64,000 bases of DNA from Candidatus Levyibacteriota bacterium (GTDB taxonomy: Bacteria > Patescibacteriota > Microgenomatia > Levybacterales > UBA12049). The stretch is taken from NCBI GenBank assembly GCA_003173895.1, contig PJMG01000005.1:18275-82274 (forward strand), read 5' to 3'. The stretch's first letter is position 1. Each line of letters opens with the position of its first letter. The notes beneath the pieces were generated by a model that ran no database searches, was not told the origin of the DNA, and was given only the letters and a program-made list of their open reading frames with translations. Below, piece by piece: positions 14,824 to 41,036 of this stretch. A program made the translations under genes and the position numbers.

Positions 14824-16206
14824 TTACTTTTTTAATAAATTTTCTATTTCTAATAATCTATTATATTTTGCTATTCGTTCTCCCCTATTAGGTGCGCCAA
14901 ATTTTACCATATCACTGTTAGTTCCTACGGCTAAATCCGCGATAAAACTATCATTAGTTTCTCCGCTTCTATGAGAAATTATAGTTTTAATATTGTTATT
15001 TTGACACAATTTAATCGCTTCCAAAGTTTCTGTCAAAGTTCCTATTTGATTTAATTTTATTAGGACTGAATTAATAGCTTTTTCATCAATGGCCTTTTGA
15101 ATTCGTTTAAGATTAGTAGTTACTAAATCATCACCTACGATTATAAATCTATTTCCAATAGCATTAGTTAAGTCTGACCAATTTTGCCAGGCATCTTGAT
15201 CAAAGATATCTTCTAACAAGGAAATAGGATAATTATTAGCCCAGGCTATAATTTTTTGTTGCCACTCAGTTGCTGAGACAACTTTATTATTCTCACTTTT
15301 TAAAACATAATTATTATTTTGGTAAAATTCTGAGGCTGCTGCATCTACTCCGATAGTAAAATCTTCATTTAATTTATAATCTGCTTTTTCGACTGCTTGC
15401 ATAATTAAATCTAAAGCTTCTTCATTGGATTTTAATTCTTTAGGGCAGAATGCTCCTTCAAAACCTACACCGGTAGAATATTTTTTTTCTTCTAAAATAG
15501 TTTCAAGTGTTTTATAGATTTTTATAATGGCTTGAATTTTTGAATTAAAATTTGAAAATTTCTCTAAATTAGGAATTATGGAATATTCTTGAATATCAGT
15601 AACCCAATTACCATGTTTTCCACCACAGATAAGGACAGATAGAGGGTTTGGAATCTTGAAATTAGTAGCGGCTTCGCGAGCGTTAGCCGATTCGGTCTGA
15701 GCCTCACGGTCGAAGACGTGGTGATCTTTTAGAGATTGCTCCTGCCCGCTAACGCCTGAGCGTAGCTCTGGCAGGCGGGTCGTCGTTTCACTATTCGCAA
15801 CGACGTATATATATTCAAATAGTTCTAGATTTTGTGATTTAGCAGCAGCTCTGGCGACGCTTAAAGATACAGATAAAATAGCATTTGCTCCTAAATTTGA
15901 TTTATTTTCTGTACCATCCAAATTTATCATGATTTCATCGATTCCTTTTTGATTTTCTACATTTTGTCCTACTAATGCCTGAGTAATTTTAGTGTTCACA
16001 TTTTCTACTGCTTTTAAAACACTTCTCCCTTGAAAGTTATTTGGGTCATTGTCTCGCAGTTCTAAAGCTTCATATTTCCCAGTAGAAGTTCCAGAAGGAA
16101 CAGAAGCAATGGATATAATCCCATTTTCTAAGATAACTGTGATTTGAATTGTTGGGTTAGCATTACTGTCTAAAATCTGAGTTGCTTGAATATTTTTAAT
16201 TTTCAT
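14824..16206 (-). CDS. eno: Enolase, carrying a ~45-aa in-frame insertion
   Basis: N-terminus IQATQILDSNANPTIQI; GVDAAASEFY; IVGDDLVTTN; ISHRSGETNDSFIADLAVG. At 460 aa it is longer than typical enolases because of an insertion between the FEYIY and IPNPLSVLICGG blocks. Confidence 0.9.
   Translation of the reverse strand: MKIKNIQATQILDSNANPTIQITVILENGIISIASVPSGTSTGKYEALELRDNDPNNFQGRSVLKAVENVNTKITQALVGQNVENQKGIDEIMINLDGTENKSNLGANAILSVSLSVARAAAKSQNLELFEYIYVVANSETTTRLPELRSGVSGQEQSLKDHHVFDREAQTESANAREAATNFKIPNPLSVLICGGKHGNWVTDIQEYSIIPNLEKFSNFNSKIQAIIKIYKTLETILEEKKYSTGVGFEGAFCPKELKSNEEALDLIMQAVEKADYKLNEDFTIGVDAAASEFYQNNNYVLKSENNKVVSATEWQQKIIAWANNYPISLLEDIFDQDAWQNWSDLTNAIGNRFIIVGDDLVTTNLKRIQKAIDEKAINSVLIKLNQIGTLTETLEAIKLCQNNNIKTIISHRSGETNDSFIADLAVGTNSDMVKFGAPNRGERIAKYNRLLEIENLLKK
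15667..15805 (-). repeat. GC-rich, hairpin-rich in-frame insertion inside eno (RPE-like palindromic element)
   Basis: A ~138-nt stretch of >55% GC in a ~30% GC gene. Contains nested inverted repeats (cgtcgtt...aacgacg; cccgc...gcggg; gcctg...caggc) and keeps the reading frame (46 codons). Confidence 0.55.
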
Positions 16207-35465: not shown

Positions 35466-35512
35466 GAACTCCGTTTGGGACAAAACCTACGGTTTCTTCC
35501 CAACGATCTCCC

Positions 35513-35565
35513 CTAAAAAGTTGCGCGACAACGGTAATTCCGAAACGAGCGTTGTAACCGCGCAA
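35513..35565 (-). terminator. Rho-independent terminator for the 35628-36203 gene
   Basis: Minus-strand hairpin uugcgcg-guuacaacg...cguugu-cgcgcaa followed by CUUUUU. Confidence 0.5.
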
Positions 35566-35627
35566 TTATTGATAGTAATTATTATATCAAAAAAACAGAT
35601 ATAAACAAAAGAGAAAATTGTTTAAAT

Positions 35628-36203
35628 TTACTTTATGTATGTGTGCAATAAGGTTAAGTATTTTCCATAATTAGCGTAAATTAAATACGCATTAATTAAA
35701 ATTAAAAGTGGAAATACCATAAATTTTTCTACGAAACTTCCAGTTCTGACTCTTAAAAATTCTAAAGGTGGAAAACCAAATTTGATTGGTATCGGAAAAA
35801 GCCAGGGTACACCTTCACGAGTGAAAGTATCCATTATTAAATGCGATCCATAGCCTATCATAAAACTCCACCAAACTATGTTCATATTTACTAAAATTAC
35901 GTGGTTGGCTAATTGTAATAAGTAATGCGAAAGAAACCCAAAAAGCGCAAATCCCAATAAAGAATGTGAAACATGTCGATGTCCACCTAAAAAAGGTGTA
36001 AACACTCGACTATACACTCCTCCAGCTGGTAATTTATGCCAAAGATCTCCTGTGGGTTGATCGATATCAGGCGTTAAACCACCTATCATATTAGCACTAA
36101 AAGCGAAAAATGCAGTTCCAAGTGAAATGTGAAATAAAGGGAAAGTTACTATAATAGTATTTAAAGCTGTGAAAGCTGCTAAATCATGAGTTCTTCCTGT
36201 CAT
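35628..36203 (-). CDS. Membrane-bound metal-dependent hydrolase-like protein (YdjM/DUF457-like)
   Basis: N-terminus MTGRTHDLAAF, His-rich, 4-5 TM helices. Confidence 0.35.
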   Translation of the reverse strand: MTGRTHDLAAFTALNTIIVTFPLFHISLGTAFFAFSANMIGGLTPDIDQPTGDLWHKLPAGGVYSRVFTPFLGGHRHVSHSLLGFALFGFLSHYLLQLANHVILVNMNIVWWSFMIGYGSHLIMDTFTREGVPWLFPIPIKFGFPPLEFLRVRTGSFVEKFMVFPLLILINAYLIYANYGKYLTLLHTYIK

Positions 36204-37462: not shown

Positions 37463-39118
37463 TTATCTTCCAAACATCTTATTTAATTCTTTAAAAGAAA
37501 ATAGAATACTGGTTGGTCTGCTGTGAGGGCAGGTAGCATTGTTAACTACTTTTTGTAAACTAGAAACGATATCTTTCATTTGTTCATTGGTCAATTTATT
37601 TCCAGCTTTAACGGCTGCTCGACAGGCTAAAAATGCTAACATTTCTTCACTCATTGAATCTAAATTTTTTACTTGACCATTATCCTCAATAGATTCTAAA
37701 AGATTTTTTATCAAATCTTTAGGATTTCTATCTTTAAGTAATTCAGGTAAATGTGTAATGGACATTTGATCTTTGGCTAGAGAAAAAATAATGCCTAGGT
37801 TTTTAAAAAATCCTTGGTATTCTCCTAAAATTAGAATTTCTGATTTATTGAAATTGATGGTAATGGGAGTAGCAAGTTTGTATGTTTTAGTTTTTTCCTT
37901 TAAAAATTCTTCTTTTAGTTTTTCAAAAATTATTCTTTCATGAGCTGCATGTTGATCGATCATTAAAAGACCGTGTGAAGTTTGAGTTAGAATATATAAA
38001 TTATTAAATTGAATTATAAAATTATCTTCTATTCTAAATTTAGGTAATTTCTCTAAAACATTTTCTTTTAAGAATTGTCCAGCCACAGAATTAGTCAAAC
38101 CAACTCCAGTTCTTTTCCAGGAAAGATTTTGAAAAGTTAAATTACTATTCTGCAATGTTTCACTTACCGCTTGTTTAATAAAATTAAAAACCGTTTGCGC
38201 ACTGACTAGACTGATTTGTTCTTTTCGAGGATGAACATTTACATCCACCATTTCATATGGAAGATTAAGATATAAAACAAAAACTGGATACGTCGTAGGT
38301 TCTAGCATATTTCCGTATGCTTCTTTAATCGCTGTATTTATTAATCTATCAGTAACTTTTCTATTGTTAATAAATAAAAATTGCTTATTAGTGGATGAAG
38401 TATGGAACTGTGGTTTAGAAATAAAACCAGAAAGTTTTAAATAAGAATCATTTAATTTAAGCGGAATTAAAAGAGAGAAATTTTCTTTTAAAAATAAATT
38501 TATTCTTTCAGAGATATTAGATAGTGCCGGAAAATCTAAGAGAATTTTAGAATTGTGTTTTAAGGTAAAATGAATCTGAGGATAAGATAAAGAAAAACCT
38601 ATGACTAAATCGATAATATATCTAAGTTCGGTCTGTTTACTTTTTAGAAATTTTCTACGAGCTGGAATATTTTCAAATAAATTATCGGCTATAACTACAG
38701 TCCCACTTGGCATTCCTGTCTCTTTTTGACTAATTAATTTATTATTTCGAATTTTAATTTCATTTCCTACGATAGATTTTTCGATTTTACTTTTTATAGT
38801 TAAATCAGAAATAGCTGCTAAACTGGAAAGTGCTTCGCCTCGAAAACCTAAAGTAGAAATTCCTATTAAATCCTCTGAAATCTTACTAGTGGTGTGAGGC
38901 TTAAAAGATTCTAATAAATCTTCTTTGGACATGCCTTCACCATTGTCTGTTATTTGAATTTTTTTCAGCCCTGCATCTTCTAAATAAATTTGAATATGAG
39001 TGGCTTTAGCATCTATAGAATTTTCTATTAATTCTTTAACTGCAAAGGCCGGTCTTTCGATGACTTCTCCTGCTGCTATTTTAGAAATTATTTCTGGTGA
39101 AAGTGCATGAATTTTCAT
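37463..39118 (-). CDS. mutL: DNA mismatch repair protein MutL, endonuclease-type
   Basis: GHKL ATPase N-terminus (ISKIAAGEVIERPAFAVKELIENSIDAKAT) and C-terminal endonuclease motif DQHAAHERIIFE. Confidence 0.9.
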   Translation of the reverse strand: MKIHALSPEIISKIAAGEVIERPAFAVKELIENSIDAKATHIQIYLEDAGLKKIQITDNGEGMSKEDLLESFKPHTTSKISEDLIGISTLGFRGEALSSLAAISDLTIKSKIEKSIVGNEIKIRNNKLISQKETGMPSGTVVIADNLFENIPARRKFLKSKQTELRYIIDLVIGFSLSYPQIHFTLKHNSKILLDFPALSNISERINLFLKENFSLLIPLKLNDSYLKLSGFISKPQFHTSSTNKQFLFINNRKVTDRLINTAIKEAYGNMLEPTTYPVFVLYLNLPYEMVDVNVHPRKEQISLVSAQTVFNFIKQAVSETLQNSNLTFQNLSWKRTGVGLTNSVAGQFLKENVLEKLPKFRIEDNFIIQFNNLYILTQTSHGLLMIDQHAAHERIIFEKLKEEFLKEKTKTYKLATPITINFNKSEILILGEYQGFFKNLGIIFSLAKDQMSITHLPELLKDRNPKDLIKNLLESIEDNGQVKNLDSMSEEMLAFLACRAAVKAGNKLTNEQMKDIVSSLQKVVNNATCPHSRPTSILFSFKELNKMFGR

Positions 39119-39125
39119 ATTGTTT

Positions 39126-39230
39126 GGGGTCCTGCCGGTTGTTTCCCTCCCAAGGGTGCTCGCAATGGGGGTAATTCTGATGAATTAAAATGCTGCGCGC
39201 CATCGAGAACCCTTCCACAACCGTCACCCC
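39126..39230 (-). other. GC-rich structured element in the mutL leader (candidate ncRNA or miniature palindromic element)
   Basis: ~105 nt of >55% GC. Long-range pairing ggggt/acccc and ggttgt/acaacc encloses internal stems gggtgctcg/cgagaaccc. Confidence 0.4.
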
Positions 39231-39350
39231 TGAAATTATTTTAATTATTTATAAATATAGTATAAGAAGATGAGAAGTTCAATCAAATCTACTTAGAGAA
39301 AAAGTTTGTTATGTTAATTATATATTAGTTCAAAAGAAAATTAAACTTAT

Positions 39351-41036
39351 TTACTTAAAATAATCTTTGGGTTGAATTTCTACTGCACCGCTGTTAAGTA
39401 ATTTATTTCGCTCCTCTAGGGTCAATCCCTTGACGCCATAAATGTTTGCCCCTTCAAGATTTGTAGCTACACCTCTCCACTTTCCCAAATTCCAGAGGTC
39501 TGTACCCTGAAGATTTGTTCCTTCAAGGTTTGCATTTTGAAGATCTGCTCCTTCAAGATCTGCACCCTGAAGATTTGCATTCTCAAGGATAGTCATCTCA
39601 AGATTTGCTCCCACAAGAATAGTTCTCTCAAGGTCTGCCCCTTCAAGATTTGCATACCTAAATGTAGCACCCGATAGAATAAGATCATTAAATTCGCATT
39701 TCTTCAAATTCAATCCGTCAAAGTGAACACCGGATGCATTAAGAAATTTAATTTGATTATCGTGTCTTAATTCTCCATTTTGTAAGAAAACATCCCTTAT
39801 TTTTGCTGCTGCCTGGAGAAAAACTTGTAAAAATGCTAGATCTACTACATCAGGTTGTTGATTATTAGAGTCAGTAATTATCCTATCTCGAAAATGCTCT
39901 ACAGCTAGGTTAAAAATACGCTGGTGAAATCTTTCATTTCCTTCGTTTTCTAAAAATTGAAGCAGTTGTTTCGCTGCGAATTCTTGAATACTTAAATCAG
40001 TATTTTGTAATGCTTTTACAATTGATTTAAATTGCGCTTCCTTAGATATAGTTTTTTCTTGAATAGGATGTCTTTCTTTCCACTCCTTGACGTACTTTCT
40101 GATCTCACCAGCTAACTTTGTACCTTCAGCAGCTAAAGCTTTGCTGCTTCTGTCTACTGCATAATTAATTCCAACCGATAGCCCTACTGTTATGGCAATA
40201 CCTAAAAGTACATGAGGACTAACTCCTAAAGCTGTTGCTGCAGCAATAGTGAGAGCTTTAAAGATTATCTTTGCGTTTTCATTAAGAACAGGTGTTCCTG
40301 CTTGTACTGCCGTATTCATAACAGTTTCAATAACTGGTTGAACTAATTCTTTTCCAGCAGCAGGTATACCACTTAGATCCATTACGGCTTGGAAAGTAGC
40401 TGCTGTTACTTCAGCGCCTCTTTCTTCCATTTTATCAAAAGCTTCATCTACAGATACTTGTCCTGAAGGGACAATTGATTGATCTAAAGGGACTAAAGCA
40501 GTGGATGTTTCTGAGGATACTTCTGATTCAACTCCTCGTCTGGGAGAAAGTTGAGAAGAAGGCGGTATTTGAGCTTGAGATTCAACAACTGGTGAATTTG
40601 TTTCTGTTGGTATATTTGTTCCCTCAGCTGTCTTAATCTCACTAAACTTCATAGCAGAAAGTACTAAAAGATCTGGACCTAAAAATCCTCCTGGTGTATT
40701 AAAGTGAAGTTGTGGAGAATCAGAAGAAACAGGAATAGTTTTGCCCGAAGATGAAGGAGAGTAGTTTAAATCATTAGGATTAACAACCAGTGGTGTTACT
40801 AAAAGATTTCCTTGATCATCTGAGTGTATCTCTCTAATATCTAAAGTATTCGTTTGTAAATTAAAGCAAGTGACAATTAGACCATCTACATCTTTACCAC
40901 CTAATTCTTTTTTAGTATCAACAATACCGTTATTAGCTGGAGCAATGGCAACTGTTGCATAATCTTTGCCGTTATATTTTATGAGGCTAACTGGTTTTGG
41001 GTCTCTATTGTGAAGAAAACCTTCGATTATATGCAT
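39351..41036 (-). CDS. Pentapeptide-repeat protein with N-terminal TM-containing domain
   Basis: C-terminal tandem A(N/D)LxG repeats (ANLEGADLERTILVGANLEMTILENANLQGADLEGADLQNANLEGTNLQGTDL). Confidence 0.75.
   Translation of the reverse strand: MHIIEGFLHNRDPKPVSLIKYNGKDYATVAIAPANNGIVDTKKELGGKDVDGLIVTCFNLQTNTLDIREIHSDDQGNLLVTPLVVNPNDLNYSPSSSGKTIPVSSDSPQLHFNTPGGFLGPDLLVLSAMKFSEIKTAEGTNIPTETNSPVVESQAQIPPSSQLSPRRGVESEVSSETSTALVPLDQSIVPSGQVSVDEAFDKMEERGAEVTAATFQAVMDLSGIPAAGKELVQPVIETVMNTAVQAGTPVLNENAKIIFKALTIAAATALGVSPHVLLGIAITVGLSVGINYAVDRSSKALAAEGTKLAGEIRKYVKEWKERHPIQEKTISKEAQFKSIVKALQNTDLSIQEFAAKQLLQFLENEGNERFHQRIFNLAVEHFRDRIITDSNNQQPDVVDLAFLQVFLQAAAKIRDVFLQNGELRHDNQIKFLNASGVHFDGLNLKKCEFNDLILSGATFRYANLEGADLERTILVGANLEMTILENANLQGADLEGADLQNANLEGTNLQGTDLWNLGKWRGVATNLEGANIYGVKGLTLEERNKLLNSGAVEIQPKDYFK

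Follow-up and report, generated by a model that had tools for sequence, protein, structure and literature searches.

A GC-rich in-frame insertion in a Levyibacteriota enolase contains a 39-nt palindromic repeat found mostly in Patescibacteria

Short mobile GC-rich palindromes that invade coding sequence are known from the very AT-rich mitochondrial genome of yeast, where they are called GC clusters or 'byp' elements. Among bacteria, repetitive extragenic palindromic (REP) elements measure 20–40 bp and fall into GTAG- and CGTC-tagged superfamilies (Di Nocera et al., 2013; PMC3733652). Rickettsia palindromic elements (RPEs) are longer, at ~150 bp (100–150 bp), comprise the families RPE-1 to RPE-10, and are confined to Rickettsia according to the summary in PMC10969869 of the original work (Ogata et al., 2000, 2002). 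[quoted passage not shown] Here, I describe a GC-rich in-frame insertion in the enolase gene of a Candidatus Levyibacteriota bacterium, which contains a 39-nt palindromic repeat (the 39-mer), and compare it with these systems. The window referred to throughout is the whole stretch of DNA that was analysed, 64 kb of contig PJMG01000005.1.

The enlarged linker of enolase

The enolase gene (14824..16206, minus strand) hosts the insertion and is intact, with an open reading frame (ORF) of 460 aa in which Pfam places Enolase_N at residues 3–133 and Enolase_C at residues 184–458. Alignment with 58 orthologues (59 sequences in total), a check proposed in an earlier note on this DNA, delimited the insertion to the linker between L129 and P186. 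This linker has 56 residues here, 15 residues in 45 of the 59 aligned enolases, and at most 24 in all others; its range in the relatives is 14–24 residues, and the site is empty in all 58 orthologues. The earlier note had counted 46 extra codons in an enolase ~35–45 residues longer than usual, of which the enlargement of the linker stands, while orthologue alignment puts the net excess at 41 codons or 123 nt. Among the best 120 of 8000 scored matches in a database of 5.8 billion protein clusters, homologues are 411–437 aa long, the listed ones belong to Patescibacteria of the Microgenomates/Dojkabacteria type, with the closest orthologue 58% identical. The gene of the nearest relative (locus L001, 29.7% GC) has an ordinary AT-rich linker of eight codons at the place of the insertion.

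Solved enolase structures cover residues 3–134 and 181/185–458 only, with nothing aligned in between. Columns invariant in the 59 enolases, including the motifs of the catalytic region, are kept here by definition, as this sequence is one of the 59. AlphaFold2 returned a confident enolase fold, with a mean predicted local distance difference test (pLDDT) score of 89.6 and a predicted template modelling (pTM) score of 0.89. The pLDDT falls below 50 over residues 142–163, and residues 162–182 are modelled as a low-confidence helix. The suggestion that the insert forms a surface loop agrees with this model, in which it occupies a very low-confidence loop and the enolase fold is preserved.

The extra residues are encoded by a GC-rich tract with foreign codon usage (15661..15807, minus strand; codons Y134–N182), which was delimited by GC content, codon usage, and alignment, and which adds the net 41 codons between the N-terminal domain and the TIM barrel. 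At 56.5% GC over ~15661–15807, against 30.7% for the window, it matches the ~138-nt island of >55% GC in a ~30% GC genome that the earlier note had reported. The highest 100-nt GC value of the window lies inside the tract (0.61 vs. a mean of 0.307, standard deviation 0.061), and the peak exceeds all six tRNAs of the window. GC content at third codon positions (GC3) is 0.55 for codons 134–182 and 0.18 for the remainder of the enolase gene; at 0.63 vs. 0.17 ± 0.07, the tract is also the top GC3 outlier among all 30-codon windows of 58 ORFs. The same is true of synonymous codon usage, at –1.68 vs. –0.87 ± 0.12 or ~6.7 standard deviations from the mean (3281 windows). This foreign codon usage spans the tract from end to end and takes in residues aligned with the native linker (YVVANS and ATN); at 141–147 nt, the GC-rich stretch exceeds the net insertion in length. 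Of the six frames, that of enolase alone runs through the tract without a stop, and the other five contain stops. Because the linker excess coincides with the strongest compositional anomaly of the window, with the enolase fold and motifs intact, the insertion and its GC island are real and exceptional. The unameliorated GC3 of the tract, in a genome with a GC3 of 0.17, suggests either a recent event or a sequence maintained by selection on the palindrome.

The island had also been described as full of nested inverted repeats, and the named repeats are indeed present, though for the island as a whole they are no more than expected by chance. There are five inverted repeats of at least 6 nt vs. 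2.4 ± 1.5 in shuffles (p 0.07), the longest arm has a p of 0.16 against shuffles, and the RNA folds of the two strands have z scores of –0.85 and –1.13. The DNA fold of the island has a z of –2.0, and significant structure is confined to its central 39 nt (fold z –2.5 for this copy). No terminal inverted repeats were found at the ends of the 147-nt tract (alignment p 0.23), and no target-site duplication flanks it beyond chance 4-mers.

Database searches with the island were equally negative. Rfam gave no family at gathering thresholds or at permissive thresholds up to E 10, a tRNA/tmRNA scan found none in the island, no promoter or terminator stood out, and Pfam and PHROGs had no match in any frame of the insert. 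No second copy of the island was found in the window by blastn and nhmmer, and the full 123–147-nt tract has no repeated relatives in the window or in 714 kb of repeat-bearing loci. It matched no plasmids, phages, or E. coli genomes (BLAST, DNA) and no plasmids at the protein level, and is therefore no common contaminant. An intein, a self-splicing intron, and a structured RNA were rejected on the Rfam, Pfam, and PHROGs results together with the size of 41 aa; the smallest mini-inteins have ~130 aa. On the strength of the chance-level tests of the whole island, it was first favoured as a unique foreign patch, and then a 19-mer seed from its core gave 104 matches.

The 39-nt repeat and its insertion sites

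The seed that defined the family was the exact 19-mer GCTAACGCCTGAGCGTAGC (15748–15766), scanned against GTDB species-representative genomes, where 104 matches compare with ~4.3 expected (2 × 596 Gb / 4^19). Three matches came without flanking arms, a number in agreement with the chance level of ~4. When 99 distinct copies were aligned on the seed, conservation extended over exactly 39 nt, with an information content of zero on both sides and the consensus CCCGCCCGC-TAACGCCTGAGCGTAGCGATG-GCGGGCGGG. The enolase gene holds one complete copy (CCTGCCCGCTAACGCCTGAGCGTAGCTCTGGCAGGCGGG; 15741..15779, plus strand), recognised by its identity to other copies, the profile match, and its fold. It is identical at 39 of 39 positions to copies in a Gottesmanbacteria metagenome-assembled genome (MAG; locus L037) and in another Patescibacteria MAG (L055), and at 38 of 39 to the copy in L034. 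It is also the sole match of an nhmmer family profile in the window (E 6.6e-11). Read on the minus strand, it encodes (T)RLPELRSGVSGQ(E), enolase residues 143–156, inside the stretch with a pLDDT below 50.

The earlier idea of a multi-copy repeat can be kept for the 39-mer, which is present in multiple copies in many related genomes, and not for the 138 nt as a whole, since the other 84 nt match nothing. Seeds of 19 and 20 nt found no match in IMG/VR viral contigs. A search of 8 million full texts, with subscription literature outside its reach, found no description of the repeat or of REP-like repeats in the candidate phyla radiation (CPR). A 9-nt direct repeat, AGCTCTGGC, occurs at 15764–15772 inside the 39-mer and 83 nt away at 15847–15855 in native enolase; this is probably chance, with ~0.15 expected in the region.

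These copies bear directly on whether the loop could have grown in place as a lineage-specific feature with no mobile component. The linker does vary between 14 and 24 residues in relatives, and with the nearest orthologue at 58% identity the lineage is isolated and the insertion undatable. Set against this, other phyla-level lineages carry copies at unrelated sites that are identical over the full 39 nt, which refutes growth in place for the 39-nt core, and a GC3 of 0.55–0.63 is at odds with a genome whose GC3 is 0.17. Such an origin is conceivable only for parts of the other 84 nt, and I regard it as extremely improbable.

In its common variants the repeat folds into a rod in which positions 1–6 pair with 30–35, 7–11 with 23–27, and 13–15 with 20–22, leaving a CTGA loop and a 4-nt 3' tail. 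The unpaired tail is CGGG or CAGG, while a GTAG at positions 22–25 lies inside the stem. DNA fold z scores of the common family variants are –3.2 to –4.5, compared with –2.5 for the enolase copy. Over 35 distinct variants, the rod structure is 95.7% paired, and 13 of the 35 carry C-G to U-A double changes, at pair 2:34 in seven variants and at pair 3:33 in six. None of 500 shuffles reached the observed covariation score. A full-length 9-bp register of the repeat was not supported by the variants, and a helix of 5–9 with 35–39 was supported through pair 7:37; it corresponds to the same structure read on the opposite strand. Diverged copies, retrieved by a profile search of the fetched loci, keep the inner stem around the CTGA loop by compensatory changes. 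Because compensatory changes support the helices of both strands, formation of the hairpin seems to constrain both, which suggests a role at the level of DNA rather than of a single RNA strand.

A functional nucleic-acid signal, whether a structured or antisense RNA, an intron or bypass element, or a protein-binding or DNA-uptake site, would account for the very strong conservation across deep lineages of a hairpin with a CTGA loop, and for its depletion between divergent genes (see below). I nonetheless consider it unlikely, given the negative Rfam result, the lack of a conspicuous promoter or terminator, and a helix shared by both strands. Moreover, a unit of 13 codons that lies in genes exclusively in stop-free frames argues for translation, and the sequence falls short of the size of group I or II introns and has no matching take-off and landing codons for bypass. 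Group I and II introns, a T4-gene-60-type bypass, the variable region of a diversity-generating retroelement, and a retron were dropped from consideration for their size, their motifs, or the lack of a second template copy.

Palindromes that share the arms CCCGCCYGC/GCRGGCRGG and have other loops were seen at L011 (134–175), beside the 39-mer in L004, L086, and L087, and in L010, L018, L076, L079, and L102. A larger repeated GC-rich unit encloses the 39-mer in one Patescibacteria MAG (JAHJSD01). The shared arms with different loops, together with this nested copy, suggest a superfamily with nested insertion.

About a quarter of the copies lie within genes: 27 of 105 are flanked on either side by 30 aa or more in stop-to-stop ORFs with a minimum length of 150 aa, and a second count by called ORFs gave 30 intragenic copies of ~100. 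The unit corresponds to 13 codons; stops are absent from three of its six frames, and genes use each of the three, namely the forward frame ARPLTPERSDGGR by nine copies, the reverse frame ARLPSLRSGVSGQ, which is the enolase frame, by 14, and the reverse frame PARHRYAQALAGG by four. Most of the host genes are genuine conserved ones; they include those of YchF, IMPDH, Rho, TopA, PheS, GatA, Era, TatD, CobU, XerC/D, and enolase, with IMPDH and Rho identified by reading translations and not by search. A Pfam family was found in nine of the ten host ORFs tested. One domain match spans the element in CobU, TatD, the PheS core, the Era GTPase domain, the GatA amidase, and a class IV aminotransferase; in a GHMP kinase, XerC/D, and TopA, the best-scoring reported match lies beside the element and not across it. 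The earlier note likened the island to RPEs and similar repeats that insert in-frame into essential genes, and the 39-mer is indeed found in-frame in PheS, GatA, TopA, YchF, Era, and others. One case is YchF on the closed Roizmanbacteria chromosome CP066689.1, where a 14-residue gap against Thermus YchF (PDB 2DBY) falls exactly at the element, and the insertion is exactly 39 nt with native AT-rich flanks.

Classifiable intergenic copies lie between tandem genes in 27 cases, convergent genes in 14, and divergent genes in three. Across 92 copies, the length distribution of repeats in the flanks equals the shuffled expectation, giving no sign of a target-site duplication, and the flanks hold no target consensus beyond a weak preference for G/C at –1/+1. 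Copies in tRNA spacers were noted in L017 (~1150–1260), L033, L073, L077, and L099. In L017, a second copy of the 3' half of tRNA-Glu follows the intact gene downstream, with the 39-mer inside the T-loop of this duplicate. The IMPDH genes of L037 (760–798) and L034 (4728–4766) carry the element at the same site, preceded by the peptide SGVSGQ or NSVSGQ, which repeats the C-terminal peptide of the element in different codons. This peptide may be left from an old partial copy that has since ameliorated, or it may reflect a target preference.

The seed matches are spread over 68 assemblies, mostly of Patescibacteria. At least 40 are labelled as such, among them Davies-, Roizman-, Levy-, Gottesman-, Woese-, Shapiro-, Nomura-, Komeili-, Portnoy-, Zambryski-, Magasanik-, and Berkelbacteria, Saccharibacteria, and Paceibacterota; the labels of the others are generic or doubtful. 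One assembly has 12 seed loci, the maximum, and another has eight; most copies within one genome carry one arm variant, as expected from local amplification. On some third-party MAGs, the labels 'Syntrophobacter' and 'Gammaproteobacteria' look unreliable (L004 and other CAZNJP01 loci; L027, L031, L034, L073, and others), with a locus GC content of 0.35–0.42. One 'Syntrophobacter' assembly has 38% GC, and the IMPDH of L034 closely resembles that of Gottesmanbacteria. Many copies lie within ~100 nt of a contig end (L006, L020, L032, L047, L048, L054, L010, L023, L052, and L063), and the repeat seems to break metagenome assemblies.

The position at contig ends raises the question of an assembly or binning artefact, in which DNA of another organism, of the length of a read, was joined into the contig. 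The tract has roughly the length of a short read and a foreign composition, its source is a MAG, and the repeat perturbs assembly elsewhere. Yet random DNA of 57% GC would keep the frame without a stop with a chance of only ~6% (1/3 × 0.18), and the same element lies in-frame in intact genes of many independent assemblies, including the closed chromosome. This makes an artefact very unlikely in my view.

Origin of the insertion and its other 84 nucleotides

The tract flanking the repeat consists of two parts. On one side, an orphan GC-rich segment (15661..15740, minus strand) encodes (E)QSLKDHHVFDREAQTESANAREAATN, has foreign codon usage, and matches nothing in the loci. Its similarity to the inverted 39-mer is borderline (p 0.05), and a 19-mer seed from these 80 nt returned eight matches in JGI metagenomes, all from one GC-rich soil locus and none with an extension. 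On the other side, a separate hairpin with a 7-bp stem, CGTCGTT ... AACGACG (15781..15805, plus strand), adjoins the repeat as an inverted repeat and encodes V135–T142; it is unrelated to the 39-mer and has no match in the window or in the 714 kb of repeat-bearing loci. The 84-nt remainder as a whole likewise had no match in these loci, its alignment to the 39-mer was not significant, and the inserted tract minus the 39-mer folds no better than shuffles (z –1.1). As its codon usage is equally foreign, the remainder probably arrived recently, with or beside the repeat. One reading that remains is that the 39-mer landed beside other small insertions; the nesting of the 39-mer in larger GC-rich clusters, seen in one MAG, is in line with it.

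Alternatively, the whole 123–147-nt tract could be a single foreign patch that a donor richer in GC supplied through one event of recombination or repair. The 39-mer would then have come as a passenger and not by its own transposition into this enolase. The donor would possibly have been another Patescibacteria gene that already carried the 39-mer in-frame. This would explain foreign codon usage from end to end and one frame open throughout, as in donor coding DNA. Elsewhere, the element is exactly 39 nt with AT-rich flanks, so the 84 nt need another source in any case. Some weight is due to one patch because the GC-rich stretch is longer than the net insertion and covers residues of the native linker. 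On the other hand, degenerate peptide scans over the whole tract in GTDB representatives, JGI metagenomes, and IMG/VR gave no donor and no confirmed match, with the shared 13-aa core failing the tblastn filter. An exhaustive phmmer search with the 50-aa insert returned one spurious match only, to a VCBS-like repeat protein, and none of the best 120 of the 8000 enolase matches is longer than 437 aa. I therefore treat the single patch as a possible but doubtful explanation.

The explanation I favour, and consider probable, is that the island is a translated in-frame insertion in a surface linker of a functional enolase, and that its core is one copy of the 39-nt palindromic repeat. Several points weigh against it. 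Of the 123 inserted nucleotides, the repeat accounts for 39, and the other 84 (15661–15740 and 15780–15807) match nothing; translation is deduced from the frame and the model only. The 64 kb of this genome hold just one copy. Ascertainment of the family by an exact 19-nt seed guarantees conservation in that part of the loop, and common descent of the copies makes the shuffle controls overstate covariation. Doubtful labels (Syntrophobacter, Gammaproteobacteria, 'bacterium') leave the host range uncertain. Lastly, no transposase or other recurrent gene was found within 3 kb of ~100 copies, from which it follows that the repeat is non-autonomous and that its mobilising activity is not encoded nearby.

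The 39-mer family behaves as selfish DNA of the REP/RPE type, small and non-autonomous, and each of its two strands can form a hairpin. Its copies occur at unrelated sites with sharp ends and without target duplication, most classifiable intergenic ones between tandem or convergent genes. Within genes, a copy may survive by virtue of its 13 codons and three stop-free frames, with only landings in permissive loops tolerated. In enolase, RLPELRSGVSGQ would have been added to a disordered inter-domain loop and, going by the structural model, would leave the fold undisturbed. The mobiliser might be a trans-acting enzyme that recognises single-stranded hairpins, similar to HUH enzymes or REP-associated tyrosine transposases (RAYTs), which is a guess and not a result.

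A wider and much more tentative proposal is that the repeats form an undescribed family of protein-coding palindromes, specific to Patescibacteria or centred on them, which spreads actively within and between class-level lineages with no target duplication and no nearby transposase. Patescibacteria have tiny genomes that are thought to be poor in mobile DNA. If the proposal is true, near-identity across lineages would point to ongoing DNA exchange in the CPR and to an unknown mobilisation system that recognises hairpins. A repeat nearly identical in MAGs of Microgenomates, Parcubacteria, Saccharibacteria, and Berkelbacteria would serve as a direct tracer of gene flow among them. The proposal would also mean that a 13-residue peptide is repeatedly added to essential proteins of minimal genomes, a second independent case, after the RPEs of Rickettsia, of selfish DNA remodelling essential proteins in reduced genomes. 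In practical terms, the repeat inflates protein lengths, which can be mistaken for lineage-specific protein features, and seems to break assemblies, as it lies at many contig ends.

Three other features of the window stand out by composition. A 118-nt GC-rich island (39119–39236) abuts the start codon of mutL (37463..39118, minus strand). It had been put forward as a possible second member of a family in this genome; it is unrelated to the 39-nt repeat, of which the window holds no second copy. It has no Rfam match to E 1 and a fold z of –1.25, and may represent a leader or a small RNA not yet described. Between the stop of an ORF (35628..36203, minus strand) and tRNA-Gly, ~100 GC-rich nt with two hairpins (35466–35566) are possibly an unannotated small RNA, with a weak hit to the 23S-methyl motif (E 0.82) as the sole Rfam match. 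Finally, the ORF at 39351–41036 (minus strand) ends in pentapeptide repeats (ANLEGADL...), whose codons ~513–542 have the second-highest local GC3 in the window (0.5).

Relation to described repeat families

The 'byp' elements differ from the present repeat in being organellar and skipped by the ribosome; in enolase no stop interrupts the frame, and it is simpler to assume translation. The likeness to RPEs and MITEs drawn in the earlier note holds for a small GC-rich palindromic repeat that inserts in-frame, and breaks down in two respects, namely the missing MITE hallmarks and a length below the ~150 bp of an RPE. Like MITEs, the 39-mers are short non-autonomous repeats able to make in-frame fusions. 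Unlike them, they are themselves hairpins, not flanked by terminal inverted repeats, and come without target-site duplication, and for these two reasons are not MITEs.

As far as the summarised descriptions go, RPEs share with the 39-mer a palindromic sequence, in-frame insertion in unrelated housekeeping genes of reduced genomes, a conserved peptide, and tolerance by the host protein. By the same descriptions, the 39-mer is set apart from them by its 39 bp, its use of three frames, and its occurrence in many phyla-level CPR lineages.

There is also a resemblance to REP elements. The 39 nt fall within the range of 20–40 bp, and the repeat is a GC-rich imperfect palindrome in many dispersed copies with no coding capacity for a transposase. 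Its classifiable intergenic copies lie mostly downstream of genes and rarely between divergent genes, some copies lie within genes, and one end of the hairpin carries a short tail that does not pair. Unlike REP elements, it has the tail CRGG instead of GTAG or CGTC, with the GTAG inside its stem, about a quarter of its copies are intragenic and in-frame, and the copies are singlets and not inverted doublets. No RAYT-type gene was seen within 3 kb of the copies, the hosts are Patescibacteria, and from one class-level lineage to another the sequence hardly changes. Lacking a GTAG or CGTC end tag and a detected RAYT, the 39-mer falls outside the formal definition of REP elements, and by its length it falls outside that of RPEs, yet it behaves like a REP or an RPE.

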